Positions 4,646 to 63,411 of a DNA stretch of 64,000 nt are shown in pieces. This DNA is from Chloroflexota bacterium. GTDB lineage: Bacteria; Chloroflexota; Chloroflexia; QHBQ01. A model generated the notes under the pieces. That model saw only the letters and a list, made by a program, of their open reading frames with translations. It ran no database searches and was not told the origin of the DNA. A program made the translations under genes and the position numbers. The stretch is from the NCBI GenBank assembly GCA_025355955.1, contig JANXYP010000200.1:16125-80124 (forward strand). Direction: 5' to 3'. Within the stretch, counting starts at the first letter, position 1, and every line of letters starts with the position of its first letter.

Positions 4646-5371
4646 ATGCCGTGCGCGGAAACCAGACCACTGATGAGCGATGCACACCTCGACCCAACTC
4701 TTTTGATCGAGATATACTCCCGGCTAGTCGCCAGCTATGGCCTGCAAGAATGGTGGCCGAGCCAGACTGGTACACCGTTCGAGGTTATCGTCGGCGCGAT
4801 CCTGACCCAGGGTACTAGTTGGCGCAGTGTGGAGCGCAGCATCACCAACATCATCGCCGCCGATGCCATGTCGCCCACCGCCATCCAGCAAATGCCTCGT
4901 GCAGATCTGATTGATCTAATTCGCCCGTCAGGGTATTATAACGCGAAAGCGGCCAAGCTACAAGCCTTCACCACCTTTTTGTTCGCGCAGCACGGCGGCG
5001 ATCTTGCCAGCCTGTTTGCCCTGCCCGTGACGGAGATGCGCCACCAACTGCTGGGCGTGTGGGGCATTGGCCCCGAAACCGCCGACGACATCATCCTCTA
5101 CGCCGCCTGCCAGCCCATCTTCGTGGTCGACTCCTACACCCAACGCATCCTCACCCGCCTGGGTATCGTCGCCCCCGCCATCACCCACCACGCGCTGCAA
5201 GAACGCTTCGCCAGCCTGCCAGCCGATGTGCCGCTGTTCAGCGAATACCACGCTCTGCTCGACGAACACGGCTCGCGCACCTGCCGCCCTACCCCTCGCT
5301 GCGCCGCCTGCCCCTTGCTCGATCTGCCCTGCCAGTATGGGCAGCAGCGGATGCTGAGTGCTGAGTGCTGA
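4646..5371 (+). CDS. Endonuclease III-like HhH-GPD DNA glycosylase with C-terminal 4Fe-4S cluster loop (C-x6-C-x2-C-x5-C)
   Basis: 241 aa with HhH-GPD core and a C-terminal Cys cluster RTCRPTPRCAACPLLDLPC. Alternative start at ATG 4673 (MSDAHL). Stop codon lies inside a (gctgagt)4 repeat. Confidence 0.7.
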   Translation: MPCAETRPLMSDAHLDPTLLIEIYSRLVASYGLQEWWPSQTGTPFEVIVGAILTQGTSWRSVERSITNIIAADAMSPTAIQQMPRADLIDLIRPSGYYNAKAAKLQAFTTFLFAQHGGDLASLFALPVTEMRHQLLGVWGIGPETADDIILYAACQPIFVVDSYTQRILTRLGIVAPAITHHALQERFASLPADVPLFSEYHALLDEHGSRTCRPTPRCAACPLLDLPCQYGQQRMLSAEC

Positions 5372-5380
5372 GTGCTGAGT
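5353..5380. repeat. Heptanucleotide tandem repeat (gctgagt)x4 spanning the stop codon of the HhH-GPD gene
   Basis: atgctgagtgctgagtgctgagtgctgagtgcc. TGA at 5369..5371 lies inside repeat unit 3. Confidence 0.9.
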
Positions 5381-5386
5381 GCCTCG

Positions 5387-5518
5387 TAAACAAAGTTTTG
5401 ACGAGGGGTGTAGTTTCCCCTCCCGCCGGGAGGGGTTGGGGTGGGTGCGTGCAGCGCGATGTAGACCCACCCCCTGCCCCTCCCAGCGGGAGGGGAGAAC
5501 CTCAAAACTTAGTTTACA
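5387..5518. mobile_element. MITE-like element family 2: ends taaacaaagttttgacgagg … cctcaaaacttagtttac enclosing a long GC hairpin (gggaggggttggggtgggtgcgtgcagcgcga … gacccaccccctgcccctcccagcgggagggg)
   Basis: Second full copy with an internal duplication at 46778..46990. Fragments at 4591..4628 and 24770..24805. Confidence 0.6.
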
Positions 5519-5613
5519 AAGCACTGAGTACGACACAAACTTAATTCAATGAGAACCTACGTAGGGGCGCAGATTTATCGCGCCTCGGTGAAGCGCATTA
5601 CTGCACCCCAAAC

Positions 5614-5643
5614 TTGCACCCCACCCAGGTCAGCGGTTATAAT
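5614..5643 (+). promoter_or_regulatory. Candidate sigma70-type promoter (TTGCAC, 18 nt, TATAAT) upstream of the radical SAM / toxin-antitoxin operon
   Basis: ttgcac at 5614..5619 and tataat at 5638..5643. By sequence inspection only. Confidence 0.3.
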
Positions 5644-5712
5644 TGTATATCTGATATTGTGCCTGTATAAAAATCCCCTTCCCCATATAGGGGGAGGCTA
5701 GGTGGGGGTATT

Positions 5713-7500
5713 TTGCCAAAGCCTAATCGCAACGAACGCTACGAACGCCTGGCCGCCGAGCAGGGCGGGGTGATCAAGGACTGGGGGGGCAAGATCAGCG
5801 TCGCGCTGGTGTTCCCCAATACCTACTATGTCGCCATGTCCAGCCTGGGCTACCAGGCGGTGTACAGCCTGATGAACGCAGAGCCGGATGTGGTCTGCGA
5901 GCGCGTCTTCCTGCCCGACATTGCCGAGCAGCAGCCCGACGCGCCATTTCCCAAGCCGGTCTCGCTGGAGTCAGGCCGCCCGCTCACCGATTTCGATGTG
6001 GTCGCGGTCAGCGTCAGCTTCGAGCTTGATTACTTCAACATCGTGCGGATGCTCAACGCCGCTAGCATCCCCCTGTTTAGCGACGAGCGTGACGACCGCC
6101 ATCCCTTCCTGATGGTGGGTGGCGCGTGCGCGATTGACAACGCCGAACCGATTGCCCCCTTCTTCGATCTGGTGGTGGTCGGTGAGGCCGAGGCGCTGTG
6201 GCCTGCGATGATTGATACGATGCGGCAGGCCATTCGTGGTGATCGCGAGGCGCTGCGCCAGGCTATGGCTCTCTATCCCGGCCTCTATATACCCGCCTTC
6301 TACGATACCTGGTTTGAGGCCAATGGCCGCTACGGTGGTATCCGCGCCAACTCGCGCCACCCCCGTCCCGACATAGCGTTGCCGATCTCGCGGCAGGGCG
6401 CACGCAACCTCAACGAGTTTGCCACCGTGAGCAAGGTGTTGACCCGCAACACCGAGTTTGGCGATGCCTATCTGATGGAAGTGGCACGCGGCTGTGCCAG
6501 GGGCTGCCGCTTCTGCCTGGCCGGTTTCGCCTTCCTGCCCCAGCGCGACCGTCACGTGCCGTTTCTGCTGGAGCAGGCCAAAGAGGGGCTGAAGTACCGC
6601 GACAAGGTGGGGCTAGTCGGCGCGTCGGTGTCGGATTACCGCTACATCGACGAACTGGTGGTTGGCCTTCGTAAGCTGGGCGCACGCATCAGTATCTCCT
6701 CGATGCGGGCCGATAGCATGACCCCCACGCTAGTGCAAGCGCTGATCGATAGTGGCGCACGCACGCTCACCTTCGCGCCGGAGGCGGCCAGCGAACGCTT
6801 GCGCCGCGTGATCAACAAGCGCCTCAGCTACGATGAGGTGATGGGCGCAACCGACCTGCTGGGCAAGGCGGGCGCACGCAGTATCAAGATGTACTATATG
6901 ATCGGGCTGCCCACGGAGGAACAGTCCGATGTGGAGCAAATCGTCAGCCTCAGCATGGCGGTGAAGAAGCGCATGGACGGACATCATCCGGGCGGCGAGA
7001 TTCAGGTCAGCGTCACTCCATTCGTGCCAAAGAGCCATACCCCCTTCCAGTGGGGCGGGATGTTCCCGCTCGATGTGCTGGAGAACGATGTAAACTATTT
7101 GAAGAAGGAACTGCGCCGCCAGGGTGTCACCTTCAAGATCGAGTCGCCCAAGTGGGTGCGGGTGCAAGGCACTCTGGCGCGGGGCGATCGCAGATTGGCG
7201 AAGGTGCTAGCCTACATGACCGAGGCGGGCAACGTCAGCATGGTAAACTGGCAGCGGGCGCTGGAGCATCACGGCCTCGATCAAGCCTGGTACCTCGATG
7301 CCTACGACGAGGGCGCACCGCTGCCCTGGGGTCATATCGAATCGGGGGTCAGCTTCAGCGCGATGCTGAGGCAATGGAACAAGGCCCACGTCGAAGCCGA
7401 AGACTACACCACCGCCATCCAGTACAAGCCCCGTGCCGAGATTCGCCTTGAACACGCGGTGCGCGAACACGCGAGGTTGGTGGAAGCATCGGCAAGCTGA
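5713..7500 (+). CDS. Radical SAM protein, TIGR03960-like (N-terminal B12-binding-like domain, CxxxCxxC = CARGCRFC)
   Basis: 595 aa. Radical SAM cysteine triad in ARGCARGCRFCLAGF. N-terminus ERYERLAAEQGGVIKDW resembles TIGR03960 proteins. TTG start at 5713. Confidence 0.7.
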   Translation: MPKPNRNERYERLAAEQGGVIKDWGGKISVALVFPNTYYVAMSSLGYQAVYSLMNAEPDVVCERVFLPDIAEQQPDAPFPKPVSLESGRPLTDFDVVAVSVSFELDYFNIVRMLNAASIPLFSDERDDRHPFLMVGGACAIDNAEPIAPFFDLVVVGEAEALWPAMIDTMRQAIRGDREALRQAMALYPGLYIPAFYDTWFEANGRYGGIRANSRHPRPDIALPISRQGARNLNEFATVSKVLTRNTEFGDAYLMEVARGCARGCRFCLAGFAFLPQRDRHVPFLLEQAKEGLKYRDKVGLVGASVSDYRYIDELVVGLRKLGARISISSMRADSMTPTLVQALIDSGARTLTFAPEAASERLRRVINKRLSYDEVMGATDLLGKAGARSIKMYYMIGLPTEEQSDVEQIVSLSMAVKKRMDGHHPGGEIQVSVTPFVPKSHTPFQWGGMFPLDVLENDVNYLKKELRRQGVTFKIESPKWVRVQGTLARGDRRLAKVLAYMTEAGNVSMVNWQRALEHHGLDQAWYLDAYDEGAPLPWGHIESGVSFSAMLRQWNKAHVEAEDYTTAIQYKPRAEIRLEHAVREHARLVEASAS

Positions 7501-33192: not shown

Positions 33193-34227
33193 TTATTCAA
33201 GCTCATCGGCCTCCTGCGTAGAAAGGTGATTGGCACTTTGTTTCCACACATTACTTCGATGCCAATCGAGCACCTCTTTAGGAGGACATATAGCTTCATT
33301 ATTGGGCAGCAGTATTTGCTTGCCATCCATGTTCATTAGATCGAAGTTGTTGGTATCTGCTATCATCAACACGGGGCTAAGAGTTATTCTATAATCATCA
33401 GTTAGGGTGAACAGTCCGTTATCAAAAGCCCAGTGGTGAGTACGGCACAACGCCAAGCCATTACGTGGGTCATCTGTACTATTCTGCTCTTTCGGCACAA
33501 TGTGCGCTGCTGTAACCTCTGACAAACCACCAAGCTGAACCTTCAAGCCGCAAACAGCACATGTATAATCGTACTCACGCAGAACCAAACGACGAAAGGC
33601 ACTGTCTCTTTGGGGCGAGGTTGCAGTGTAACTGACTCGCTTCTCTTCAATGAATAGCTGAAACTCATCGCTCAAATGAGCATATAGTTGTACTTCTTGG
33701 CTAGCATCTTCCGTATCTGGTATTTGTGATATCTCCATTAGAGAGGAATCATCAATGCCTACAATAACAAACCGATCTTCATCTGAATTATAACTTTCAA
33801 TTAGCCCCAATCCCAGAATTTTATAGGTACAACCTTGTAGCTTGTCGTATTTGTCTGTTAGACGCTCAAGCACAACGAGAGGAACTTTATCGCTCATGCA
33901 TTTCAACAAAGCATTTTTGTCTGACATAGCAGACCTATCATTAGGACTAGTAGGTGGTGAGTAGGTAATACTCCATCGTCCATCTTGAAGATACGAGATG
34001 CTATCTTTATTACCATATCGGCTATCTGCAATGATTTTTACAGACAGGGCATACTCGGAACCTTTCGGCTTATAGACACCTCTGGCTCTAGTGACCAAAT
34101 ACTTTAGTTCAGGAACATACAAAGATATGTTTTCGATATAGGTGCAAGGAAGGGATCTTCCCGTGTACTTAACAAGCTTCGTAAGAGCTTTAGCACGTTG
34201 CTCGTTAGGCATATTATACCTTCCCAT
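33193..34227 (-). CDS. HNH-family nuclease (C-terminal CAVCG…AAHIVP…NGLALCRTHHWAFDNGLF) with ~230-aa uncharacterised N-terminal domain, in a low-GC island. Candidate modification-dependent (type IV-like) restriction endonuclease.
   Basis: 344 aa. GC content ~43% versus ~64% in the flanks. HNH motif (C-x2-C … H … N … H-x3-H-like). A terminator-like hairpin ggcggtaac…gtcaccgcc lies just beyond the 34227 end. The N-terminal domain is not assignable by eye. Confidence 0.65.
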   Translation of the reverse strand: MGRYNMPNEQRAKALTKLVKYTGRSLPCTYIENISLYVPELKYLVTRARGVYKPKGSEYALSVKIIADSRYGNKDSISYLQDGRWSITYSPPTSPNDRSAMSDKNALLKCMSDKVPLVVLERLTDKYDKLQGCTYKILGLGLIESYNSDEDRFVIVGIDDSSLMEISQIPDTEDASQEVQLYAHLSDEFQLFIEEKRVSYTATSPQRDSAFRRLVLREYDYTCAVCGLKVQLGGLSEVTAAHIVPKEQNSTDDPRNGLALCRTHHWAFDNGLFTLTDDYRITLSPVLMIADTNNFDLMNMDGKQILLPNNEAICPPKEVLDWHRSNVWKQSANHLSTQEADELE

Positions 34228-40723: not shown

Positions 40724-42961
40724 TCAAATGAACCTCGCAGTGATACTCCGCTGGCAGTTTTTCAATTCTTGCGGTGGCCCCTCAAACAACACTTCACCAC
40801 CAGCGCTGCCCCCTTCGGGACCCAGGTCTATGATCCAGTCGGCCTGCCGGATCACGTCCAGATGATGCTCAATCAGGATGACCGTGTTGCTGGCATCCAC
40901 CAGCCGGTCAATGATGCCCATCAGCAGGTTGATGTCGGAACGGTGTAGCCCGGTGGTGGGTTCGTCCATCACGTAGACGCTACCCTTTTTGTGCAGTTCG
41001 GTAGCGATTTTCAGGCGTTGCCCTTCACCGCCCGACACGGTACTGAGTGGCTGGCCCAGTGTTAGGTAGCCCAGCCCCACGTCGTTCATCGCTTGCAGCA
41101 CGGCCTTGACCTTCTTCTCGCTGAAGAAGATCAGGGCTTCCTCCACCGCCATGTCCAGCACGTCGCTGATGGTCTTGCCGCGTAGGTGGTACTCCAACAC
41201 ATCGGGCTTGAAACGTTTGCCCTCGCAGATTTCGCAGGTGGATGCGTATCCCTCCATGAACGCCAGGTCGGTGTACACCACACCCAGACCGTTGCAGTTG
41301 GGGCAACTGCCCTCCGAGTTGAAACTGAAGAGCGCCGCGCTAACCTTGTTGGTTTTAGCGAACGCCTGCCGAATGTCGTCCATGATGCCGGTATAGGTGG
41401 CCGGAGCCGAGCGGCTGTTTGCCGTCACGCGGGACTGATCGATCACAATCGCGCCCGCGTGCTGCTGCAGGAAGACATCGTTAATCAGGGTGCTTTTTCC
41501 CGAACCAGCCACCCCCGTCACCACAGTCAGTACGCCAGTGGGAATGTTCACCGTGACGTTCTTCAGGTTATGCAGGGTGGCATTCTTGATCGCCATATGC
41601 CCAGTGGGCAGCCGTACCTGCTGCTTGATTGGCAGGCGCTGCTTCACAAATCGCCCGGTGAGGGTGTCAGCGTTCTTGAGCGCTTCATAGCTGCCCTCAA
41701 ATACCACTTCACCGCCATGTATCCCCGCCTTTGGGCCGAGGTCTACCAGGTGATCGGCGATCGCCATTACATCTGGATCATGCTCGACGATCAGGACGGT
41801 ATTGCCCTTGTCTCGCAGCTTCTGCAGCAGGCTGTTCAGGCGGGCGACATCGCGGGCGTGCAGCCCCACGCTGGGTTCATCGAGGATGTACAGCATCTCG
41901 GTCAGGCTGTTGCCCAGGTGCCGAATCATCTTCACCCGCTGCGACTCGCCGCCGGACAGGGTGGAGGTTTCGCGGCTGAGGCTCAGATAACCCAGCCCAA
42001 TATCTATGAGGTGCTGCAAGCGTTCGCTGAGACTGGTAGCTACGCGCATGGCGACTGGATCGCTGAACTCCCCCAGGAGTTTGACCAGTTCGGTCGCTTC
42101 CAGGTCGGAGAGTTCGGCGATATTGTGGCCGCCAATCCTGCAATTCAGGGCGGCCTGGTTGAGCCTGGCACCATGGCACAGCGGGCAAGTCTGCGAGGTG
42201 GTGAATTGCTCGAAGACGGCACGGTTGCGTTCGGACATTGCCGCCGCGTCCTTCTTGACAAACGAGCGGTTGAAACGCTCGACAAGGCCTTCATATTGCA
42301 GATAGCCCATGCCCAGATCAATCTTAGCTGCGTCTGCGCCGTACAGCAGAGCGTTCAGCTCCTCCTCCGTGTAATCCTTGATTGGTTTATCGTTGTCGAA
42401 GAGGCCGGAGAGGGCGTAGGTCTTCCACAGCAAATTGCCGACTTTGAACGCAGGGTGGAGGGTTGCCCCGCCATTCAGCGACTTGCTGCGATCGAGGAAC
42501 TTGTCCAGATCGAGCTGCACCGTCTTGCCGATACCTTCGCACTCTGGACACATTCCCTGGATGGTGTTGAACGAGAAGTGGTAGCCCGGACCGACATAGG
42601 GCTGTCCCGCCCGTGAGAAGAGCAGCCGCAGCAAAGTGGCAATATCCGTGTATGTGCCTGCGGTCGAACGCGAGCCACCGCCGACCCGCTTCTGGTCAAT
42701 GATGACCGGCGCGTTCAGGTTTTCGATATGGTCCACGTCCGGTTGGCCGTAGTGCGGCAGGAAGCCTTGCACGAAGAAGGTGAAGGTTTCGTTCAACTGG
42801 CGTTGCGCTTCGGCGGCGATGGTGTCGAATACCAGTGAAGATTTGCCAGAGCCAGACACGCCGGTAAACACCGTGATCTTCTGCTTGGGGATGTTCAGCG
42901 AGATGTCCTTGAGGTTGTTTTCGCGTGCGCCGTGAACCTCGATGAACTGCCGATCGGTCAT
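40724..42961 (-). CDS. UvrA-family ABC ATPase paralog (short class II/UvrA2-like, 745 aa)
   Basis: N-terminal MTDRQFIEVHGARENNLKDISLNIPKQKITVFTGVSGSGKSS (Walker A) and a second ABC module. About 200 aa shorter than canonical UvrA. Confidence 0.75.
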   Translation of the reverse strand: MTDRQFIEVHGARENNLKDISLNIPKQKITVFTGVSGSGKSSLVFDTIAAEAQRQLNETFTFFVQGFLPHYGQPDVDHIENLNAPVIIDQKRVGGGSRSTAGTYTDIATLLRLLFSRAGQPYVGPGYHFSFNTIQGMCPECEGIGKTVQLDLDKFLDRSKSLNGGATLHPAFKVGNLLWKTYALSGLFDNDKPIKDYTEEELNALLYGADAAKIDLGMGYLQYEGLVERFNRSFVKKDAAAMSERNRAVFEQFTTSQTCPLCHGARLNQAALNCRIGGHNIAELSDLEATELVKLLGEFSDPVAMRVATSLSERLQHLIDIGLGYLSLSRETSTLSGGESQRVKMIRHLGNSLTEMLYILDEPSVGLHARDVARLNSLLQKLRDKGNTVLIVEHDPDVMAIADHLVDLGPKAGIHGGEVVFEGSYEALKNADTLTGRFVKQRLPIKQQVRLPTGHMAIKNATLHNLKNVTVNIPTGVLTVVTGVAGSGKSTLINDVFLQQHAGAIVIDQSRVTANSRSAPATYTGIMDDIRQAFAKTNKVSAALFSFNSEGSCPNCNGLGVVYTDLAFMEGYASTCEICEGKRFKPDVLEYHLRGKTISDVLDMAVEEALIFFSEKKVKAVLQAMNDVGLGYLTLGQPLSTVSGGEGQRLKIATELHKKGSVYVMDEPTTGLHRSDINLLMGIIDRLVDASNTVILIEHHLDVIRQADWIIDLGPEGGSAGGEVLFEGPPQELKNCQRSITARFI

Positions 42962-43458: not shown

Positions 43459-45618
43459 CTACGGAGTTAGCGTGGGCGTAGCGAACACCGATGGCTCATA
43501 GGGGTTGGCGGTGCTGGACAGGGTGTTCGCCAGGGCGATTAGCTGATCCTTACTCATCTGCAAGCCGCGCAGTTCCACGTAGCTGCTCTGCTTGACCATC
43601 CACAATGTCGGCCCGCCCTGCTGCGTTGGGTTGTTCAGGAAGTGCGCGGCGCTGCCGTCGGCCAGCGTCACTGCCTCACCCTGCTGGCTGGGGTCAGCAT
43701 CGCGGCAGCAGCCTTTCGCGCCGCTAAGGACACTGAGGGCGAAGCTGCCATCGGGGTGATGGTAGACAAGCTCCACTGTATTCACCCCCTCATAAGAGGT
43801 TGCATTCTTAATGTTGAATACATGGACATTTACTGGCGGCTCGACGATTAGTCCGACGGGAGTATCAGGGGGCGCGAAGATGGCGAATGGTAGCTTCCCG
43901 CGCATAGCATCGAGTCGGGGGAGGCCAAACAGTGTGTTGGAAATTGGAGTAGGGGTCGCGGTTACCCCAATCGGCACCTGAGTGAATGAGTTAGCGACCT
44001 TGATAAGCTCGTCGCTGCTCAGGGTAGCGTTAGACAAGCCTAGTTCGTTTCCGTCCCGGTTCAACTCCAGAAATATCACTGGTTGACCGTTGCGATAAGT
44101 TGTATGGGTGAGCCATGCCCTTCTACCACCTACATACACTGACTGCTCATCGGATGAATGTGCCGAGCTAGCGCCTAGCGCCTGCTCCTCGATAAGCAAC
44201 CCATGTGCCATAGGATCAATCGGTTGGTTTGCTTCGCTGGCTGGCACGTATTCCAAATTCAGATACATACCCGAATCTGGAGCTGAAGGGAGTACGTTTG
44301 GCTGACGCGGAACCAGGTTATTAGGTATGTAGGACGGCAGGAACAGAGAGAAACCTGCCTTTGCGGACAAATCCTGCATCTGCGCGTCAAACTGCGTTTG
44401 TGTGGCCGCCCCTTTCGGGCGATAGTCGCTTACGCTGGTACCTGGCGGGGGCGTAAAGGTAAACACTGACTGATCGATCGGCATATCAAACTGGGCGGTG
44501 GTGGCGGTTACTCGCCGACTAAGGTTGTTGCCGTTGTATATCTCATATTTGAGCATGAAGTAGTTGCTGCGATCAATCCAGATTACGAACCGCGCTACTG
44601 GTGAAACTCCTGACGCTAGCGGCCCGTTGGGAAAAGCAGGTGAGGGTACGTTTAGCATTGATGCGGGCGAAGCTGAAGATGAAGGAGGGCAGTGTGATTG
44701 ACCCGAGTCGATCACGTAAGTTGCGCGGCCAGCGACTGTGTCAGTGCCTCGCAGCGCAGGTGTGTAGCATTGCCCCATGCTATCAAGGACACTATATTGC
44801 CAGTTAGTGGTAACGAATTGCAATCGGTTCATGCTGTCTGTGGGATTGTACTCTCTACCAAATAGCTCCACATGAGCGCTCTTATTGCTGGTGGTACCGC
44901 CCACAGTGCCATCGTAGTGCCAAACGTAAGTGCCATCACTGACATCAATTTGCTCATCCGGTATAAACTGCGTCCCTTTACTGGAAAAACCGATGCTGTT
45001 GCTACTCACAGTTCGCCAGCGGTTCGGCGCTTCGTACCAGAGGGCAGTAGGTACGCTGTTGGTTACTACTTCTGGACGAGCTGTTGTTGGGATGGAGTTA
45101 GGGCCGCCCATAGGAGGGATGGACAAATCCATCTCTTCACTTTGAGTAATTACCAAACTCTTGATGCTGCCATCGGTAAACACCGCCTGCGCCCTCTTGA
45201 TGATCTGATCGGCGCTTAGGGGTGTGGGGTTGTTGCTCAGGCTGCCGACCAGCAGCCAGCCACCTGCCAGGATAAGGATAGCAACAGCGGCAGTCGCCAG
45301 GCGGGGGAAGAACCAGCGGCGCAGCGGCTTGGTGGGGGCGGGTTGGCTAAAGCGACCCGCGCCGATGTCGGGCAGCATGGGCATGACGGGTGCCTGCTCT
45401 GCGCTAGTTGCGCCTTGCAGTGCGCTTTCCAGTTGGGCCTTGAGGCGGATTTGATAGGCCAGCGTGGGCGCGGGCGTGTCAAGGCCACGCCGCAGCATCT
45501 GTGCTTGCTCTGCCAGTTCGGCATCCAGCCCGGCAGTTGGCGGCGCGGTGGGGTTCTGCTCAAGCTGACGGCAGTATTGCTCCAGTAGCGCGGCCTGCTG
45601 TTCTTCGTCACTGCCCAT
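43459..45618 (-). CDS. Anti-sigma factor (N-terminal cytoplasmic domain, single TM, ~600-aa extracytoplasmic domain)
   Basis: Immediately downstream (14 nt) of the ECF sigma gene. TM segment RWFFPRLATAAVAILILAGGWLLVGSL. Function inferred from position and topology. Confidence 0.5.
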   Translation of the reverse strand: MGSDEEQQAALLEQYCRQLEQNPTAPPTAGLDAELAEQAQMLRRGLDTPAPTLAYQIRLKAQLESALQGATSAEQAPVMPMLPDIGAGRFSQPAPTKPLRRWFFPRLATAAVAILILAGGWLLVGSLSNNPTPLSADQIIKRAQAVFTDGSIKSLVITQSEEMDLSIPPMGGPNSIPTTARPEVVTNSVPTALWYEAPNRWRTVSSNSIGFSSKGTQFIPDEQIDVSDGTYVWHYDGTVGGTTSNKSAHVELFGREYNPTDSMNRLQFVTTNWQYSVLDSMGQCYTPALRGTDTVAGRATYVIDSGQSHCPPSSSASPASMLNVPSPAFPNGPLASGVSPVARFVIWIDRSNYFMLKYEIYNGNNLSRRVTATTAQFDMPIDQSVFTFTPPPGTSVSDYRPKGAATQTQFDAQMQDLSAKAGFSLFLPSYIPNNLVPRQPNVLPSAPDSGMYLNLEYVPASEANQPIDPMAHGLLIEEQALGASSAHSSDEQSVYVGGRRAWLTHTTYRNGQPVIFLELNRDGNELGLSNATLSSDELIKVANSFTQVPIGVTATPTPISNTLFGLPRLDAMRGKLPFAIFAPPDTPVGLIVEPPVNVHVFNIKNATSYEGVNTVELVYHHPDGSFALSVLSGAKGCCRDADPSQQGEAVTLADGSAAHFLNNPTQQGGPTLWMVKQSSYVELRGLQMSKDQLIALANTLSSTANPYEPSVFATPTLTP

Positions 45619-46334: not shown

Positions 46335-46770
46335 TCATTCCAATTAGCCAACGAGATGCTATAGTTCTGTAGGGGCGAACCGCTGTTCGCCCTGGCTCAA
46401 TCTATCGCGGCACCATCGATAATAGGAATAAGGCAAGCTCTCCCCCCACCAACCTACCCACAGGGAACCCCACAAGGGGGTTTCCCCGCTGGGGAGAGGC
46501 TTTTTGGCTTATCGTATTAGCCAACGAGATGCTATAGTTCTGTAGGGGCGAACCGCTGTTCGCCCTGGCTCAATCTATAGCGGCACCATCGCTAATGGGA
46601 ATAAGGCAAGCTCTCCCCTCACCAACCTACCCACAGGGAACCCCACAAGGGGGTTTCCCCGCTGGGGAGAGGCTTTTTGGCTTATCGTATTAACCAACGA
46701 GATGCTATAGTTCTGTAGGGGTGAACCGATGTTCGCCCTGGCTCAATCTATAGCGGCACCATCGCTAATG
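46335..46770. repeat. About 2.5 tandem copies of a ~180-bp composite repeat. Each unit is a family-1 REP-like core (gtaggggcgaaccgctgttcgccctgg) plus a terminator-like hairpin (ctctcccc…ggggagaggcttttt).
   Basis: Units start at ~46335, ~46517 and ~46688 (partial). Confidence 0.8.
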
Positions 46771-46777
46771 GGTATCG

Positions 46778-46990
46778 CAAACAAAGTTCTGATGGCGAGG
46801 GTGTAGTTTCCCCTCCCACCGGGAGGGGTAGGGGTGGGTGCGTGCAGCGCGACTCGGACCCACCCCCAGCTTGATTGATGCTGTGCTGGGTGGAATCTAT
46901 CTGCGTGTCAAAGTGGGTGCGTGCAGCGCGACTTGGACCCACCCCCAGCCCCTCCCGGTGGGAGGGGAGAACATCAGGACTTTGTTTATC
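46778..46990. mobile_element. MITE-like element family 2 (second copy, with internal duplication of the gtgggtgcgtgcagcgcgac…gacccacccccagc arm)
   Basis: Ends acaaagttctgatggcgagggtgtag … gggagaacatcaggactttgtttatc match 5387..5518. Confidence 0.6.
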
Positions 46991-47012: not shown

Positions 47013-47570
47013 CTATTCTGCTTCTTCCATCCCTACAGCGATGAGGTAGCCCCGCGCCCGCTCACTGAGCGGGTAACGGTTGACTAGCTTCCAGAAGGCA
47101 GTGGAGTGGTTGGCTTCGCGCAGGTGGGTCAGTTCGTGGACGATGACGTAATCCAGTACCCAGACGGGCATGGTTGCCAGCCGATCTGATATGCGGATGC
47201 TGCCGGTGGAGGGGGTGCAGCTACCGTAGCGGCGCTGCTGGTTGGTGACATACTCGATCGAGTTGTACTTCAGCTTGCCGTCGAAGTAGCGTTTGTTCAG
47301 TTCGGCAGCGCGTTCAGCAAGGTTGCGGTCGGTGTTGAGGTTGCGGCGGCGGGTCTGGCGCTCCAGGGCGAGCAGCAGGTTGTTGACCGTCTCCTGCTCC
47401 TGCACGGGGGTGAGGCCCGCAGGCACGCGCACAACGATGCGTCCACCCACGCGCTGGGCGCTAGAGGTGTTCTTGCGCCGATTGCTGCGGATAATCTCAA
47501 TCGGGGTGGGACTTGACTCGCCCGCATCAAGGTGCGATGCGGGCGGTTGGTTGTGGCGATCGTCGCTCAT
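47013..47570 (-). CDS. DUF45 / YgjP-like zinc metallopeptidase (HExxH: VIVHELTHL)
   Basis: 185 aa. WVLDYVIVHELTHLREANHSTAFW motif. Starts 6 nt after the stop of the 1358-aa gene. Confidence 0.65.
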   Translation of the reverse strand: MSDDRHNQPPASHLDAGESSPTPIEIIRSNRRKNTSSAQRVGGRIVVRVPAGLTPVQEQETVNNLLLALERQTRRRNLNTDRNLAERAAELNKRYFDGKLKYNSIEYVTNQQRRYGSCTPSTGSIRISDRLATMPVWVLDYVIVHELTHLREANHSTAFWKLVNRYPLSERARGYLIAVGMEEAE

Positions 47571-47576
47571 CTCGGT

Positions 47577-50500
47577 TTAATCGCGCTCATCATAGGGTTC
47601 GACGCGCTGGGCCCGCTGGGGAATGGGTGCGATGTCAGGGTTGGCGGGATCCTCGTCGCGGCCACGGCGCAGGTCGCTAGGGCCATTACGTCGCCTCCCA
47701 TTGCGGGCTGGCTTGTTCTCAACAACCGCCGCCTCGCTGGTCGCGGCGGGTGCTACAGTCGGGGTTTCGCTTGAAGCTTGCGCTTCAGGCTGGTTGGCTG
47801 GCTTACGATTACGGTTGCGGGCAGGTTGGGGCCGGGTGGGGGTGGCAGCGGTTGCGGTCTCCGTTGACGCTGGTTGCGCTTCGGGCTGGGCTTTGGGCTG
47901 CGACGGACGACGGTTGCGGCTGGGCTTCTGGCGCTGGGGCGTTTCGGGGGCAATGGATTGCGCCCCTACGGTAGCGTCTGATTCGGGAACGGTGGTTGGT
48001 TCGGGTTGGATCGCTTCGGTTGCGCTAGTTGGTTCGGTGGTAGCTGCATCGGTTGCGCTAGTTGGTTCGGTGGCAGTTGCAGCGGGTTGGCGCTTGCCAC
48101 TACCGCGTCCACCGCGACCACGGCTGCGCTGCTCTGGATCCAGGGCGACCCCCCAGGCGGCGCGGGCTTCGGACAACGGTGGAGTGGTGCCATCATCGCT
48201 AACCACCGCCGCTTCCGGCACGTCGCCGCTGTCAAGCACCACGATGAAATCGCTAATCTCCTCCGGCAGCAGGTAGGTGGGCGGCTCGAACCCGGCTAGC
48301 CCTTCGCTGAGGGTCGCCTCATCAGCAGCGCGGTGGGCTGATACCATCTCTGGCACCAGGATCGCCTCATCGAACACTGAAGCAGGCAGCAGCGTCTCAT
48401 CGAGCGGGGCGGTCTGTTCGCGGCGGCGCGGGGTAGCGGGGTAGGCAAGGTGTTCGTGGCCGTGCGCGGTCAGGGCCATGGCCCGCTCGTGGGGGTCATC
48501 CATGCGGTTGAAGTGCTGCTCAATCTGGTCGGCGAAGTCGCTGATATTGCTAAGGGTGGCGGGGTCGTAGAGCATCGCACTCTGGGTCTCTGCCGCAACC
48601 TCGCGGTTGCCGCTCTCTGCTGCGGCCGGTTGCTCGGCGTAAGCGGTTTCATCCTCGTTCTCTACAGTTGGGGTGGTGGAGGTGAAGGCCAGCCAGGGGC
48701 CGTGCAACCCCTCTTCAGTTACGCCGTAATAAGCGTGGAAATTGCCAGCAGCATCGCGCTGGGCCAGGTCGTAGCGGCGCACATCGGCACGGATGGTGCT
48801 GCGCCAAAGGCCAACATCGCCCAGCCAGGTCACATCTTCAGGGCGCGGCTCGTTGTGTTCGCGCTGAGTGATGGCGTAGCGCCACAGGCGGCGGGCGGAG
48901 TGGCGGCTGACGTGATGCACCAGGTTTCCGTTACGCAAATCCTTCATCGTATGATAGATGGTGCCATCACGCTCTTCGCTGGCGACAATCTCCACGCCGG
49001 TGTGGGGTGGGTCAGTGATGCTGTCGGGGCTGGTGGTTTCGACCTCTACGCCAATAGGTTCGTCCACTTCTATGCTGCTCGGCTCATCGGTAACGAGCGC
49101 GGCGGTAGCAGCCTCGGCAGATTGGCCGGGGCTGCGCCCACGCTTACGGCGAGGGCGATGATGTGCGCCGCTTGCCTGTTCCTCGCCAATCGCGCTCTGG
49201 CGATGCTCTTCTGGATGTACGCCCCCGCTGTTGTCCGGCTCGGCTGCAATAGTGGCAGCGGCAATGCTGGGGGCAGCCAGTGCGACCAGCGCGGGTTCAA
49301 CCTGGGGCGCGGGCTGGCGCAAGCTGGTGGGCGGGCTGGCAACTGCATCAACCAACTGGCTGGCGGCGATTTGCGGCTGGGGCAGGCTGGCGGGTTGCTC
49401 CTCGCGGGGCGCGATAACGAGGCGCTCCCGCCGGGGGAAGCGACGCTCATCGCGCTCACCGCTCTGCGGTTGCTGGGTCTGTGGCTGCTGGATTTGCGCC
49501 GGGCGCGGGGCAAAGATAGTCTCACCTGCGCCGCCGGTTATCACCTCACGCATCAGTTGCACGATCTCGTCGCGCATCGCCAGATTGGTCTCGCTCTCCT
49601 GGCGGATGTAGATCTGGCTGCCTTCCAGGGCGTAGGGGCGGTCGCTGCCCTTCGGTACGTTGACCAGCACCACAGATTTGCCTTCGCTGGTGCGTAGATC
49701 CATAGTCAGGTTGAGCGCGGGGGTGATATTGCGCTGGATGTCGCCGCGCAGCACATCTATCGCCTCGGCGGGGTTGTCTACCCCACGCAATGGCAGGCTG
49801 GACAGGGGCGGCACGCCGAGGAAGATGGTGCCACCGTTGGTGTTGGCGAAGGCCACCACATCGCGGAGGATGTGGTGGCTGCTGGTACGGCGCATCGGCA
49901 GGCGGTCGTGGAACGCCTGCACCTGGTTGGGGCCAACGGTGCGGGCGGCCTTGACTGCATCGAACGGCGCTTCGCTGATCTGGCGGCTGGGGCGCACGCG
50001 GTCGAAATCGCTGCTGAACAACAGCCCCTTGAGCGCGGCGAAGCTCTGCTCCGGCAGCAGCACGTCGGTGGTGCGGTCGCCCATGCCGGGCAAACGTTGC
50101 TTCTCGTCGCGGTAGATAAGGTGGCTGTCGCTGCTCTGGATGCAGTGCATACGGCGAGGGTATTCCGGCTTGCTGCCGTTGAAGAAGTTGGGAGTGCTGC
50201 GGCGGCTGATGCTCTCCAGGTCGGTGACTTCGAGGGCGGCGAGGTTGGGGTCCTGGGTGTAGGCGATCTTGGTCTGGCCGCCGAAGTTGAAGCCGTTCAT
50301 CACGATGCCATTGGAGGAGTTAGCGTGCGCGCCGATGCAGATGCCGCCCTCGGCGGCCACGGTGCGGTAGACGTTCAGCACATCGGTGGTCGCGCCCACT
50401 TCGGGGCTGCCCAACAACATCTTTTCTTCGGTGATACCCATGCTCATCAGCAGGTATTCCAGCCGTCGCAAGCTGGTGGTGGGCGGGAAAATGCAGGTGA

Positions 50501-51653
50501 TGTGGAATCCGAAGGTGGCGCTGAACTCGAAGCCGGGCAGCACCAGTATCTTGCTGAAGATACGGCGATACTCCTCCAGTCGGTAGCGTTCGTCGGCAGT
50601 GAGGCGACCCTCGCGCTCCATCTGCTCGACGTGGGCGCGGTCGCGCATCAGATCGTCGTAGCCCGCCACGGTGTTGTGGTCGGTGAAGGCCATGATGTCT
50701 ACATGGCGTTCCTCAGCTTTCTGCAGGATACGCAGATAGCTGACGTTTGGTTCGCGGTAGCAGACGGTGCTGCGCGGGGTGTGACAGTGCAGGTCCATGC
50801 GATACCAGTACATCCCTGGGTGCATCAGCTCGACGGCGCGACGCTGCTCCTGCTCCAGCCTGAGTTCAGCGGCGGTGTAGGTGCGCGGCTCGGCGCTGGT
50901 CTCCTCCTCACCGTTGCGCCCATAGCTGCGTTCGCCGGGGCGGCGCGGGCTAATCCGTTCGCCGGGCAGGGTACGCATAGTGGGGTTGCTGTGGCTGGTA
51001 ACCGCGCGGTGGATGCGATGCTCCGGCTCGGCAGTGGGGGGGGTGCTGCGCTCTGCAGTCGAGGTTGGGGCAGCTTCTGGTGCCTGCGGGCGGGGGGTAG
51101 AGTGCGTCGCACGGGCAGGCCGGGGAGTGATGCGCTCTGGCGCAGACGCGGGCCTGGGGGTGATGCGCTCCGGCGCGGGGGTCGCTTTGGGGGTGATGCG
51201 CTCTGCTTGCGCGGGGGTCGCTTTGGGGGTAATCCGCTCTGCTTGCGCGGCGGTCGCTTTGGGAGTGATGCGCTCGGCTGGCAGTTGGCTGCTCGAGGTC
51301 GGCGCGGCGGCAATCGGCGCGACGGCAGCGGTGCTACGCTCCGGCGGCGATTGATTGCTGCTTGGTGCGGCGGGGGCGGGCGCGGGTTGGGTTAGTGTAG
51401 TGATGGGCGCGGCGGGGGCGGCTGCGCTGCCACTGGCAGCAGTAGCTGCAGCGGCGCGGGCGGCGCGTTCTGCCGCCCGCTGGGCACGCAGGTCGCGGGC
51501 AGCGCGGGTGGCGGTGGTCTCACTGACGTTGCCAGGGTCATTATTTTCCGCACTGGGGCGGGCGGTAATCTTCTCGGCGGGCAGGCTGGTTGGCGCTGCT
51601 GGGGTGGCCGCGCTACGGCGGGGGGGTCGTTTGCTCTTATCGTTGGTAGCCAT
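47577..51653 (-). CDS. Large (1358-aa) protein: Pro/Ala/Thr-rich N-terminus with [12 protein letters not shown] tandem repeats, PHP phosphoesterase domain (MDLHCHT…[10 protein letters not shown]), AlbA_2 / Schlafen-like DNA-binding domain ([20 protein letters not shown]), further low-complexity regions and a conserved C-terminal domain
   Basis: Single uninterrupted reading frame. Domain calls are from hallmark motifs only. The in-frame 36-nt repeats at ~50980..51350 are visible at the DNA level. Confidence 0.55.
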
Positions 51654-51867
51654 GTACTGGTTGTTCTCTCTTTGGTAGTCACACCACGCGGGCGTTGCGG
51701 CCAGGTAAAGGCGCTGCGCTGATTCGCGCCGCTGCTAATGTTAGCAAAAGCGCGGGCGGGGCAGCAAGCTGGCTGTCTTAATCGCTGCGGGGCGGTAGGT
51801 TGTTAATTGTCGGTAGCGCATGAGGCCGATGGTGCGAAATCGCGTTTACCAGCGGCGGGTGGCGCGG

Positions 51868-54366
51868 TCAAACGGCGGGCTGGTCGGGCAGGCTGGGCAG
51901 CGCATCGATTGTTTCGATGGGCGGCGCGGGTTCAGCTTGCGGTACAACCTCGTCCTGGGGTGCGGCCTCGCTAGCAGCGGGCAGCAAGTCATCGGTTACT
52001 ACCTGCTCATCAGCCGCCATCACTAGCGGGCGCTCTAGCGCGGCAGCGATCACCTCGTCCATGTTTGCCACCCAGAGGAACTCAAGCTCCTGCCGCACGC
52101 GGGCGGGGATTTCGATCAGGTCGCGCTGATTCTCCTTGGGGGCGATGATGCGCTTGATGCCGTTGCGGTGGGCGGCCAGCACTTTCTCCTTGAGGCCGCC
52201 AATCGCCAGCACTCGCCCACGTAGGGTAATCTCGCCGGTCATCGCGGTGTCGGCTCGCACCGGCTGCTGGGTCAACGCGCTGATTACTGCGGTCGCCATG
52301 GTGATGCCTGCGCTCGGCCCATCCTTGGGGATAGCCCCTTCCGGCAGGTGGATGTGCAGGTCGGTGGTGGCCTGGAAGTCGGGGTCTATGTGCAACTGTA
52401 CGGCCCGACTGCGAGCGTAACTGAGCGCCGCCCGTGCCGACTCCTGCATCACATCGCCCAACCGCCCGGTGATGGTCAGGCTGCCTCGCCCCGGCATGGT
52501 AGCGACTTCCACTGGCAGCACTTCGCCGCCCACTTCAGTCCAGGCCAGGCCGGTCACTACGCCAACCTGGTTTAGCTTGCTCAGGCTACTGTCTGCGTTG
52601 TAGCGGGCGGGGCCGAGGTAGCTCTCCAGATTGTTGAGGGTGATACGCACCCGCGTGCTACGCCCGCCCACCAGTTGCCGCGCCGCCTTGCGGCAGATTG
52701 CCGCCAGCTTGCGCTCCAGGTCGCGTACGCCCGCCTCGCGGGTGTACTGCTGGATGATGGCACGGTACACCTTGTCCGGTATCTCGATGTAGCCGCGGGC
52801 CAGGCCATGCCCCTCCAACTCGCGGGCAAGCAGGTAACGGCGGGCGATCTGCACCTTTTCATCCTCGGTGTAGCCGCTCAGTTCGATTATCTCCATCCGA
52901 TCGCGCAGCGGCTTGGGGATGTTGCCAAGATAGTTGGCGGTAGTGATGAACAGTGTCTGCGACAGGTCGAATGGCAGGTCGATGTAATGGTCTACGAAGG
53001 TGCCGTTCTGGGCCGGGTCGAGAACTTCGAGCAGCGCCGAGGTGGGATCGCCGCGCTGGTCGCTGGTCAGCTTGTCAATCTCGTCGAGCAGCATCACCGG
53101 GTTGCGCGAACCGCCCTGCTTGATGCCCTGGATGATGCGCCCCGGCATAGCGCCGACATAGGTGCGGCGATGACCGCGTATCTCCGCCTCGTCGTGTATG
53201 CCGCCGAGCGAGATGCGGACGAACTTGCGGCTCATTGCCCGCGCAATGCTCTGACCCAGGCTGGTCTTGCCCACCCCCGGTGGGCCAGCGAAGCATAGCA
53301 CCTGGGCCATGGTCTTGTGGCCGCCACCCCGCGCCACCAGTTGGCGCACCGCTAGAAACTCGATGATGCGCTCCTTAATGCGCTCCAGCCCGTAGTGATC
53401 GGCATCTAGCACTTCCTCGGCGATAAGGATGTCGTCGCAGTCCTCAGTCTGCTCAGTCCAGGGTAGAGACAAGAGCCAATCTATGTAGGTGCGAGCCACG
53501 CTAGCCTCCGGCGCGGCAGCGGTCATGCGCTCCAGGCGACTCAGTTCCTTGAGTAGCTTGGCGTTGATTTCCTCCGGTAGGTTGCGCTCGACGACTTTCT
53601 GGCGCAGTTCGGCAATCTCATTGCCGCCTTCACCGGATAGCTCGTCGTGGATGGCCTTCAGTTGTTCGCGCAGGTAAAACTCGCGCTGGTTCTTGTCAAT
53701 CTGGCTACGCACTTTGGCGCGGATGCGCTCGTCGATCTGCAAGACATCGAGTTCGCCTGCGATGATCACGCCAACCCGCTCCAACCGCACAATCTGGTCG
53801 GTTAGCACCAGCAGTTGCTGGCGCTGCGCCGCGTCGCTAACTACGTGAGCGGCCACCACATCGGCAAGCTGACCTGCGTCGCTAATGTGGCGAGCGGTAT
53901 CCAGCACATCGGCTGGTACCCGCTGGTTTAGCCGCCCGAAGTCGGTGAACAGCCCTAGCACGTGACGAATCAACGCCTCGCTGGCTGCACCCTCGCTGCC
54001 CTGCTCGGCCATCGCTGCCACCTCGACATCATAAAGCCAGTCGGTTGCGATGTATCGCATGACTCGAACGCGGCGCAGCCCCTCGACAATAACCTGGTAG
54101 TTACCGTCGGGTTGACGCTGATAGCTGGTCACTTCGATGAGCGTGCCGACTTCGTAGAGGTCGTCGGGGATTGGCTCTTCGCTGCTGGTGTTGCGCTGGG
54201 TCATCACCACCAGACGCTTGTTGTCGGCGAGGGCGTGTTCCAATGCCCGCAGTGAGCGCGGACGACCAACCATCAGGGTGACAATGGTGTGGGGGAAGAT
54301 GACGACATTTTTGAGCGGCAACAGAGGATAGGCATCGTAGCCTGGGTCTGGGGTGGTATCGTTCAT
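51868..54366 (-). CDS. lon: ATP-dependent Lon protease (endopeptidase La)
   Basis: The ORF track starts at 54453. ATG at 54366 ([26 protein letters not shown]…) matches the Lon N-terminus. AAA+ Walker [11 protein letters not shown]16 protease motif PKDGPSAG. Confidence 0.85.
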
Positions 54367-54488
54367 GGCCTTATCATCGTTCAAGGAAATCGTCTTTCCA
54401 GCTCCTGCAAGTCTGCAACCGTCTACGCTTGCCTGTAAAGGATTATAACACATATATCCTACATAGGCAAGCGGTTATACAAATCGCA

Positions 54489-62748: not shown

Positions 62749-63411
62749 GTGACACAGAATAATACCGAACAGGCGCGTCCCACCCGCATCGTTGCCGCCG
62801 ACGACGAGCCACTTATTCGCATGAACCTGCGCGAGACGCTTAACAGCCTCGGTTATGAGGTGGTGGGCGAGGCGGGCGATGGTAGCCAGGCAGTCAAGCT
62901 GGCCCGCGAGTTGCGACCAGACATCGTGATTATGGACATCAAGATGCCGGAGATGGACGGTATCGAGGCGGCTCACATCCTGACTAGTGAACAGATCGCC
63001 CCTGTCCTGCTGCTGACCGCCTACAGCGATCGTGAGCTGATTGAGCGGGCTAAGGGTGCAGGGGTGATGAACTACCTGGTCAAGCCCTTCCGTGAAGAGA
63101 GCCTGACCCCCGCCATCGAAGTGACGCTGGCGACCTGGAGCAGTATGCAGCAACTCGATCAACAGGTGGACAGTCTACAGGGCCAGCTTGATACCACCCA
63201 GGGTGAGCTAGGCAGTCTGCGTGAGCAGCTCGAGGCCCGCAAGATGATCGAGCGGGCGAAGGGGCTGCTGATGCAGCGCAAAGGCATCAGCGAACAGGAA
63301 GCCTTCCGCATCGTGCAGAAGCGCAGCATGGACTCGCGCAAGTCCATGCGCGAGGTGGCGAAGGAGATCATTGATGCTTACTCGCTGACCGACGACCTGG
63401 AAAAGCAATGA
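62749..63411 (+). CDS. ANTAR-domain response regulator (REC + ANTAR; AmiR/NasT-like RNA-binding antiterminator)
   Basis: GTG start with AAGGAG upstream. REC acid pocket (…VAADDEP…IVIMDIKMPEMDG…). C-terminal ANTAR helix pair (…EARKMIERAKGLLMQRKGISEQEAFRIVQKRSMD…). Confidence 0.75.
   Translation: MTQNNTEQARPTRIVAADDEPLIRMNLRETLNSLGYEVVGEAGDGSQAVKLARELRPDIVIMDIKMPEMDGIEAAHILTSEQIAPVLLLTAYSDRELIERAKGAGVMNYLVKPFREESLTPAIEVTLATWSSMQQLDQQVDSLQGQLDTTQGELGSLREQLEARKMIERAKGLLMQRKGISEQEAFRIVQKRSMDSRKSMREVAKEIIDAYSLTDDLEKQ

Follow-up and report, generated by a model that had tools for sequence, protein, structure and literature searches.

Gene organization of the locus

The locus described here lies in a 64,000-nt stretch of a contig of a Chloroflexota bacterium (hereafter called the window; all coordinates are window positions) and consists of three genes in head-to-tail order on the minus strand, i.e., lon, a gene for a 1358-aa protein in which a PHP phosphoesterase domain is combined with an AlbA_2 domain and a family-specific C-terminal domain (CTD), and a gene for a 185-aa DUF45/YgjP-like HExxH metallopeptidase. 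The lon gene (51868..54366, −) was delimited by the probable start codon ATG at 54366 within a mechanically called open reading frame (ORF) at 51868..54453, and its product is a complete LonA protease carrying all four LonA domains in Pfam (LON_substr_bdg, AAA, Lon_lid, and, at 2.4e-90, Lon_C). The gene for the 1358-aa protein (47577..51653, −), identified from the ORF listing and from family alignments, ends in the stop codon TAA, which is followed by ACCGAG and then by the ATG of the DUF45 gene (47013..47570, −; PF01863, 1.2e-22). Reading TAA-ACCGAG-ATG in the sequence confirmed the 6-nt gap between the two genes, and the layout put forward in the original prediction, a model-made note on this DNA drawn from its letters, was recovered in full, including lon upstream on the same strand.

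Lon and the 1358-aa ORF are separated by a spacer of 214 nt (51654..51867, −), in which a minus-strand scan detected neither promoter-like nor terminator-like sites. Upstream of lon, a promoter-like site was found (54442..54470, −; TTGCCT-17-TATAAT with a TG extension, i.e., an extended −10; 10/12 consensus matches). Judged by its sequence, this site at ~54450 is the probable promoter of lon, the PHP/AlbA_2 gene, and DUF45, and the 1358-aa gene is most likely co-transcribed with lon from it in the window. The site lies within an imperfect inverted repeat (TTGCCTATGTAGG-N16-CCTTTACAGGCAA; 54400-54470, −) that could be a putative operator.

Domain architecture of the 1358-aa protein

The PHP domain spans residues 280-545 (50019..50816, −) and carries a helical-hairpin insertion. 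Pfam PF02811 did not reach its gathering score (16.1 bits versus a cut-off of 26.4; residues 287-338), and precomputed Pfam annotation flags PHP in some homologues only. NCBIfam models matched the region with their PHP part only (TrlF, 1.8e-20; Ppl, 2.7e-15; Spaf_1101, 6e-15). The AlphaFold2 (AF2) model of the domain had a predicted local distance difference test (pLDDT) score >90 over most of its length, and Foldseek matched it to 2anu (TM0559; 2.6e-7), EndoQ (1.3e-5), and RNase AM (1.4e-5), with a probability of 1.0 for 2anu, 3e0f, 5zb8, 7ug9, and the Pol III PHP domain. Of these matches, EndoQ, RNase AM, and the Pol III PHP domain are enzymes with nucleic-acid substrates. Across 93 aligned homologues, the metal ligands H289, H291, D325/H326, E376, H384, H443, and D509 were invariant, and H511 was kept in at least 90%. 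The PHP assignment of the original prediction hence stands despite the sub-threshold Pfam score, because NCBIfam, Foldseek/AF2, and the invariant ligands together identify a PHP barrel fold with a His/Asp/Glu metal centre.

The AlbA_2/Schlafen-type domain follows at residues 560-705 (49539..49976, −; Pfam core 592-690). It was assigned by PF04326 (59.8 bits versus a cut-off of 25.3; 4.8e-16) and by Foldseek matches to 2kyy, 3lmm, SLFN11/13/14, and the SAMD9 DNA-binding domain, so that the middle region of the protein is the domain originally predicted and not another fold. Neither an ATPase domain nor HATPase_c_4 was found by Pfam on the 1358-aa protein.

A disordered linker with a basic patch (residues 706-874; 49032..49538, −; pLDDT <50) leads to the CTD (residues 875-990; 48684..49031, −), which is modelled by AF2 as two beta-beta-beta-(beta)-alpha repeats with a pLDDT of 91. 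The CTD matched no Pfam family, the hit to PadR (E-value 0.05) being non-significant. Described in the original prediction as a conserved C-terminal domain, it is indeed conserved but not terminal, since it is located internally (~880-990) before a low-complexity tail of ~370 aa. Searching 1.84 billion representative proteins with a CTD profile gave only 310 matches at an E-value ≤1e-3, and all of the ten long matches that were scanned also contained AlbA_2, five of them with a PHP match as well. The best Foldseek match of the CTD was the SsgA/SsgB fold (E-value 0.037, TM about 0.25); a PUR/Whirly-like fold, which had been guessed for this domain, was unsupported by Foldseek against the PDB. 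Several relatives carry the CTD in two or three tandem copies (P0329, P0336, P0342, P0350, P0348).

Both ends of the protein are extended. The N-terminal extension (residues 1-269; 50847..51653, −) is of low complexity (A 22%, P 15%, T 12%, R 12%; net charge +11) and gave no Pfam match; the C-terminal extension (residues 991-1358; 47580..48683, −) is acidic and of low complexity (net charge −24), contains small conserved islands, and gave no significant Pfam match. Altogether, low-complexity sequence amounts to ~800 residues, basic patches included. The five tandem units originally noted lie in the N-terminal extension and were located by regular expression and tandem-repeat arrays as ERITP[KR] units at residues 127-184 (51102..51275, −; starts at 127, 139, 151, 162, and 173), with four further degenerate copies. 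The underlying DNA forms a 36-bp array of 3.6 copies (51155..51279) and a 33-bp array of 2.7 copies (51118..51205). A second in-frame tandem repeat (33 bp × 3; 47995..48094, −) is located inside the C-terminal tail.

Family size, distribution, and lineage-specific extensions

Relatives were searched with residues 270-960 of the window protein and clustered at 90% identity. This yielded >6,700 protein clusters, mostly of 555-600 aa and ~55% identical, and relatives are encoded in at least 561 species genomes; the fusion is thus not rare and represents a large and well-conserved family. Cluster names are nearly all those of Chloroflexota lineages, with one “candidate division WOR-3.” Gene neighbourhoods were counted in 80 loci kept from a one-genome-per-species scan in which those at least 561 genomes carried a relative, and all 80 belong to Chloroflexota (Anaerolineae, Chloroflexia, Thermomicrobiales, Caldilineae, Ardenticatenia, Thermoflexales, and others). 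The alignments define a three-domain core made up of PHP, AlbA_2, a disordered linker variable in length and sequence, and a CTD of ~115 aa. This core is ~55% identical across Chloroflexota classes and contains dozens of invariant residues.

The window protein is 100% identical to library protein P0245, and its best match is P0001 from a Ca. Chloroheliales MAG (metagenome-assembled genome; 81% identical). Its N-terminal extension is absent in the typical 555-600-aa members, common only to P0001 and L006, and shortened in P0282, a 1323-aa relative with 52% identity. Repeat units vary in number and sequence, as the original prediction had proposed to check: about six diverged units were counted in P0001, and those of L006 read PER[VA]QPKPxVT. 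The C-terminal extension is likewise absent in typical members and present in P0001 (partial) and P0282, the latter keeping small conserved tail islands; comparison of the two gave the motif FADxIExxFN plus one C-terminal motif. With a confidence that is moderate, and that applies to the favoured explanation as a whole (see below), the 1358-aa ORF may be regarded as a disorder-expanded, lineage-specific form of a family that is passed on vertically within Chloroflexota.

Database labels of the members are inconsistent (“transcriptional regulator,” “RNA-binding,” “DNA-binding,” “PHP Zn-ribbon phosphoesterase”). In agreement with the original prediction, no described system matching a PHP-AlbA_2 fusion was found in the literature, PADLOC, NCBIfam, or Pfam, and literature searches for Chloroflexi Lon with PHP and AlbA, or for AlbA_2 with PHP, returned nothing relevant. 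The locus represents a conserved Chloroflexota family with a family-specific domain, a strong genetic linkage with lon and hsp20 as well as with a receiver gene, and a distant kinship with TrlF, TrlG, and Ppl, as described in the following.

Conserved gene neighbourhood of the core

Upstream neighbours were evaluated in those 63 of the 80 loci whose upstream sequence reaches at least 3 kb. In 45/63 of them, lon is the next gene upstream of the core, on the same strand; in another four it lies 2.4-2.8 kb upstream with one or two genes in between, which in three of the four cases are NfeD and stomatin. The complete run of hsp20, lon, and core was present in 42/63 loci. The same arrangement was read from the gene calls of three unrelated contigs, with hsp20, lon, and the core on one strand and lon-core junctions of a 20-nt overlap (L001), an 8-nt gap, and 320 nt; their downstream genes differ, and none of these is DUF45. 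In general, the lon-core spacer of relatives ranges from the 20-nt overlap to a few hundred nt, or it contains a receiver gene.

This receiver is a stand-alone, CheY-like protein of ~120 aa, whose gene was found by ORF clustering directly upstream of the core in 24/73 loci (including L008, L012, L013, L032, L047, L051, L054, L061, L072, L074, and L082). In 15 loci it stands between lon and the core, and it is also present where lon is missing; L051, from Bellilinea caldifistulae, has the order hsp20, lon, receiver, core. Core-linked receivers retain the canonical DD/D/T-S/K phospho-acceptor residues, and judging by gene order, their placement suggests phosphorylation-dependent control of the core. 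The sole receiver-domain gene detected in the window encodes an ANTAR-type response regulator (REC + ANTAR; 62749-63411, +), which is only 23% identical to the core-linked receivers of other genomes.

Downstream of the core, genes are variable and of the housekeeping type (MogA-like, GNAT, spermidine synthase, and others), and clustering of ORFs across the 80 loci yielded no recurrent defence neighbours. Enrichment of k-mers upstream of 33 hsp20 genes returned only extended −10 promoters (TGTGnTAnAAT), i.e., elements similar to the promoter-like site of lon in the window. The conserved partner of the core is therefore lon, together with hsp20 and often the CheY-like receiver, and not DUF45; lon was underrated in the original prediction. 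Given this gene content, the core family would belong to a proteostasis/heat-shock cluster of hsp20, lon, an optional receiver, and the core, an assignment that shares the middling confidence of the whole explanation.

The flanks of the window encode a GSDH-like dehydrogenase, homogentisate-pathway genes, an extracytoplasmic function (ECF) sigma factor together with its putative partner, an ABC sugar transporter, and a rhodanese, all counted as housekeeping; they are no defence island. In a phage search, the sole match was weak, partial, and confined to the AlbA_2 region, and no plasmid match covered both domains. Taken together with the housekeeping flanks, these results give no sign of mobility.

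The DUF45 peptidase

The 185-aa protein is a clear DUF45/YgjP-like HExxH peptidase, as originally called: it scores 81.4 bits against PF01863 (cut-off 26), the match covering the C-terminal half of the profile only, and it contains the zinc-binding motif HELTH at residues 145-149 (47124..47138, −), which aligns to HELAH of proabylysin (4jiu; E-value 0.006). Matches to SprT-like (20.9 bits versus 25.6) and WLM (16.5 versus 26) remained below their Pfam cut-offs, as did those of the DUF45 relative in L033 (24.8 and 22.8 bits, respectively); precomputed Pfam annotation lists SprT-like for many DUF45 homologues. On the sequence level, this indicates no more than a clan shared with the DNA-protein-crosslink proteases SprT and Wss1 (WLM).

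DUF45 relatives amount to 4,138 matches at ~60% identity, and the named lineages are all Chloroflexota. DUF45 follows the core in only 3/80 loci, all of them from Chloroflexia MAGs with long core genes (L026, L033, L046), and the order of lon, long core, and DUF45 also occurs in the relatives L088 and L089. Across this lineage (window, L088, L089, L026, L033, L046), core-DUF45 gaps are 0-80 nt and the cores are 45-52% identical. Elsewhere in the phylum, DUF45 stands alone in unrelated contexts in the loci that were inspected. The pairing of the two genes, which had been suggested as a possible system, is accordingly confined to one Chloroflexia lineage. DUF45 would thus be a widespread Chloroflexota housekeeping gene that became operon-coupled to the core in the lineage of the window only, a view carried with the same intermediate confidence as the overall explanation of which it is part. 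The original prediction had further pointed to DUF45 genes accompanying type I restriction-modification (R-M) loci; no type I R-M genes (hsdR, hsdM, hsdS) were present in the window flanks or in the inspected loci L086-L089 and the P0195 contig. The window protein falls into a Chloroflexota-named housekeeping subfamily.

An ORF of ~800-1000 aa follows DUF45 in L026 (4021-7026), L046 (4952-7801), L087 (6659-9643), and L089 (12696-15053). Those of L026 and L046 gave no Pfam match, and none is on record for L087 or L089. The ORFs of L026, L046, and L087 are mutually homologous (39-64% identity) and show no match to that of L089; the L087 ORF follows a DUF45 gene that has no PHP gene nearby. The window contains no such ORF. 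Downstream of its ECF sigma gene, a 719-aa protein is encoded (43459-45618, −), a putative anti-sigma or envelope protein without a Pfam match. It was considered as a fourth conserved gene and rejected as non-homologous to the ORFs following DUF45 in L026, L046, L087, and L089. Its syntenic counterpart in L088 (2560-4644) is 50% identical, versus 91% for the DUF45 proteins of the same two genomes, so this gene evolves unusually fast.

Relation to TrlF/TrlG, Ppl, and other known systems

In Photorhabdus laumondii, the “temperature restriction locus” (TRL) consists of trlR-trlF-trlG, with trlF and trlG in one operon; TrlG combines AlbA_2 with HATPase_c_4, operon transcription rises when the temperature is raised from 28 to 36 °C, and loss of TRL permits growth at 36 °C (bioRxiv 10.1101/2020.06.02.129163). 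The PHP domain of Ppl, a single-gene anti-phage PHP-ATPase, is reported to be a single-stranded DNA 3′-5′ exonuclease inhibited by bound NTPs (review, PMC12904381), and this offers the best lead to the chemistry of the window PHP domain.

Searched against 72,556 plasmids, the PHP half of the window core found the TrlF family and Ppl as best matches, in their PHP parts only and at 23-26% identity. The AlbA_2 half alone gave 17 plasmid matches, of which the Pseudomonas syringae group and Vibrio parahaemolyticus account for 14. Both of the two that were inspected are AlbA_2 + HATPase_c_4 genes that directly follow a TrlF gene; one is separated from it by 15 nt, and the other overlaps it by 19 nt. 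Hence, each half of the core points to one TRL partner, the PHP half being nearest to TrlF/Ppl and the AlbA_2 half retrieving TrlG-like genes; the identities of the window halves to the TRL partners are 24% over 83 aa (E-value 4e-7) and 28% over 113 aa (E-value 3e-10). The TrlF-TrlG pairing is not universal, since for one TrlF-family gene, on a plasmid of P. aeruginosa, the PLSDB gene table lists no AlbA_2 neighbour. Of the two inspected pairs, one (L091, V. parahaemolyticus pLH80-1, 2239-6152) sits inside a BREX-1 locus, with pglX on one side and pglZ/brxL on the other, which suggests that the TRL module may itself be anti-phage, and the other (L092, P. savastanoi pPsv48B, 2281-6086) belongs to a conjugative element and has a MazEF toxin-antitoxin pair in its vicinity.

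By this comparison, the core resembles a TrlF/TrlG pair in a single chain and without the ATPases. The same two domain types occur together in both, a PHP component being coupled with an AlbA_2 component that is N-terminal in TrlG and fused into the same polypeptide in the window, and the TrlF PHP domain is the most similar one by NCBIfam (NF045780). Both also have a temperature-related side, TRL through its induction by an up-shift and the core through its position behind hsp20 and lon. Unlike the pair, the core is fused, contains the CTD instead of the SMC/ABC-type ATPase of TrlF (AAA_21, AAA_23, and SMC_N by Pfam in one TrlF protein) and the HATPase_c_4 of TrlG, and has no gene for the small TrlR regulator in the run from lon to DUF45. 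Moreover, TRL is patchy and mobile (plasmids, within BREX), in contrast to the syntenic core, which was Chloroflexota-borne in all loci kept.

The window protein falls outside the TrlF, Ppl, and TrlG families, because it lacks their full-length features: against the models of TrlF, Ppl, and Spaf_1101 (NF045780, NF042955, NF045781; PHP plus SMC/ABC-like ATPase, 840-950 aa) it scores 73, 55, and 55 bits versus cut-offs of 350, 1000, and 475, with matches at model positions 2-260 of 944. It may nevertheless function in a similar way. Its likeness to Ppl is limited to the PHP domain (PADLOC, 1.1e-10; 23% identity to plasmid copies); it differs from Ppl by having no NTPase, by the additional AlbA_2 and CTD, and by its housekeeping context. 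With TM0559, RNase AM/YciV, EndoQ, and the Pol III/PolX PHP domains it shares the fold and the His/Asp/Glu metal site at 11-18% identity, from which it differs by the hairpin insertion and the fusion to AlbA_2 and CTD; the zinc-finger domain of EndoQ is not evident. The AlbA_2 domain resembles those of COG2865-type proteins (DIP2311, 3lmm; 2kyy) and of Schlafen/SAMD9 by Pfam and Foldseek. COG2865-type proteins combine AlbA_2 with HATPase_c_4 and a winged helix-turn-helix, whereas in the window protein both are absent and the partner is a PHP domain.

Proposed function and alternative explanations

The core is most likely a stress-operon nucleic-acid phosphoesterase; for the explanation as a whole, including the cluster membership, the lineage-specific expansion, and the lineage-restricted coupling to DUF45, confidence is moderate. 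The PHP domain, predicted to be active, would hydrolyse phosphoester bonds at the ends of DNA or RNA. Analogy with Ppl/TrlF, Pol III/PolX PHP, RNase AM, and EndoQ points to such an end-acting enzyme, and by its nearest relatives the activity would be a 3′-5′ exonuclease or an end-cleaning one. Substrate binding and selection would fall to AlbA_2 and the CTD. Activity or abundance of the core would follow stress, presumably including heat, via co-expression with Lon and Hsp20 and, in many lineages, additionally via the phosphorylatable receiver. The core would then act as TrlF (PHP-ATPase) and TrlG (AlbA_2-HATPase_c_4) in a single chain, minus the ATPase modules.

Several observations weigh against this explanation. 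Neither hsp20 nor a receiver gene stands beside lon in the window, and 14/63 loci have no lon within 10 kb. CIRCE (up to 4 mismatches) and HAIR (up to 2) operators relevant to hsp20 or lon were not found upstream of these genes in the window and the 80 loci, so that the heat-shock link is carried by the hsp20/lon gene content. Foldseek against the PDB, using models of the whole core and of the CTD, returned no significant fold for the CTD, and the Rosetta-stone argument from two TRL partners to one fused protein is only suggestive, since the similarity is distant and AlbA_2 domains are common.

In a more far-reaching form, which is unlikely, the core would be the chromosomal single-chain counterpart of TRL, i.e., a heat-shock-operon nuclease of a whole phylum whose level is gated by Lon and often by a receiver, and which arrests growth or clears damaged nucleic-acid-protein complexes under thermal or proteotoxic stress. 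The mobile TrlFG and Ppl would then be related offshoots, and the lineage of the window would have gained disordered tails with an E[RK]I[TS]P[KR] motif as well as a translationally coupled SprT-clan peptidase.

If the stress-operon phosphoesterase is real, a major phylum has a conserved nucleic-acid enzyme in its hsp20-lon stress cluster, often with a receiver, and a nucleic-acid arm would join a response that is usually framed as chaperones and proteases. It would also provide a tractable, ATPase-free model for the PHP nucleases of the TrlF/TrlG and Ppl type, and could reveal the relation between the housekeeping and the defence version of this domain pair. For annotation, the inconsistently labelled members gain a concrete architecture and context, including a defined 115-aa CTD.

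Four other explanations were weighed. The core could serve RNA turnover as an RNase AM-like PHP exoribonuclease, with AlbA_2 and CTD binding RNA and the disordered regions acting like the C-terminal scaffold of RNase E during stress RNA remodelling. Foldseek matches to RNase AM (7ug9, 9etk) and to SLFN proteins agree with this, eukaryotic Schlafen-type AlbA_2 domains being tRNA/rRNA nucleases, as do the name “RNA-binding domain-containing protein” given to several members by NCBI and the ~800 low-complexity residues with basic patches. The reading is weakened, however, by the closest sequence relatives, TrlF and Ppl, which act on DNA ends; furthermore, the disordered extensions are confined to one lineage, and RNA-metabolism genes are not recurrent nearby, which makes it unlikely. 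Repair of DNA-protein crosslinks or protein-blocked ends in the lineage of the window, where Lon and DUF45 would digest the adduct and the PHP domain, guided by AlbA_2 and CTD, would remove the residual peptide-phosphodiester from the DNA end, is a distinctly unlikely reading, if an attractive one for that lineage. It would account for the kept order and short gaps of lon, core, and DUF45 among cores of 45-52% identity, and it draws on the SprT-like/WLM matches of DUF45, on the resemblance of the PHP fold to the DNA-lesion endonuclease EndoQ, and on Lon being a DNA-binding protease. Yet core and DUF45 are unlinked in most of the phylum, the SprT-like/WLM matches are below curated cut-offs, this PHP clade offers no support for tyrosyl-DNA or peptide-DNA phosphodiesterase activity, and hsp20 and the receiver are left unexplained.

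A regulator of the hsp20-lon cluster, in which AlbA_2 and CTD bind an operator and the PHP domain is a sensor or vestigial, would fit the name “transcriptional regulator” of some members, the position of the core beside a heat-shock cluster and receiver, and the overlap of the lon promoter in the window with the inverted repeat TTGCCTATGTAGG-N16-CCTTTACAGGCAA. Catalysis is favoured instead by the PHP metal ligands, all of which are strictly invariant, no helix-turn-helix or other regulator fold was detected (PadR being non-significant and the CTD matching no DNA-binding fold), and upstream of hsp20 no shared operator was found beyond the extended −10 promoters; a regulator is thus very unlikely. 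Anti-phage defence, the role suggested by the original prediction, would have the PHP-AlbA_2 nuclease and the DUF45 peptidase sense or degrade invading nucleic acid. Part of this intuition stands, in that the closest relatives of both core domains are the defence-type TrlF/Ppl and TrlG, including the pairs within BREX-1 on the Vibrio plasmid and near MazEF on the Pseudomonas plasmid; AlbA_2 domains are, besides, frequent in defence proteins. The context does not bear it out: the named carrier genomes are all Chloroflexota, with ~55% identity between classes and syntenic surroundings of housekeeping or heat-shock genes, which is the opposite of a patchy island pattern typical of defence genes, recurrent defence neighbours and type I R-M genes were not found at the related loci inspected, the DUF45 linkage is lineage-specific with DUF45 solitary elsewhere, and the ATPase modules of Ppl/TrlF are absent. 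PADLOC-DB 2.0 gave a partial Ppl match only (1e-10, positions 3-184 of 894) and none for DUF45, and across the 1358-aa ORF, DUF45, and ten neighbours its matches were at domain level only. A defence role is hence highly improbable; the DUF45/defence lead is not the real signal at this locus, and a new PHP-AlbA_2 + DUF45 defence system is unsupported.

Additional features of the window

Two further ORFs of the window matched PADLOC models. The first, a double ABC ATPase of 745 aa that has a zinc-finger insert and looks UvrA-like (40724-42961, −), gave strong matches to the MADS components mad3 (2.9e-68) and mad8 (3.5e-33), and an HNH endonuclease ORF (33193-34227, −) matched HNH at 8.7e-24. They are ~5 and 13 kb away from the PHP-AlbA_2 locus, and neither adjoins it. 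Rfam and tRNA scans of the window detected no RNA features.

Between DUF45 and the ECF sigma gene, the non-coding sequence at 46343-46987 contains ~2.5 copies of a 173-nt tandem repeat at 92-98% identity. The homologous spacer of L088, a 91%-identical relative, lacks this repeat, and Rfam gave no match to it. Further copies are located at 2407, 2484, 8157, and 58489. Each full 173-nt unit comprises a GC-rich hairpin and a terminator-like TTTCCCCGCTGGGGAGA with a T-run; behind the tandem repeat lie nested inverted repeats (26 and 16 nt). A 33-nt hairpin core of the unit occurs 7 times in the window versus 0 expected, and the unit thus looks like a dispersed element of the REP/MITE (repetitive extragenic palindrome/miniature inverted-repeat transposable element) type.

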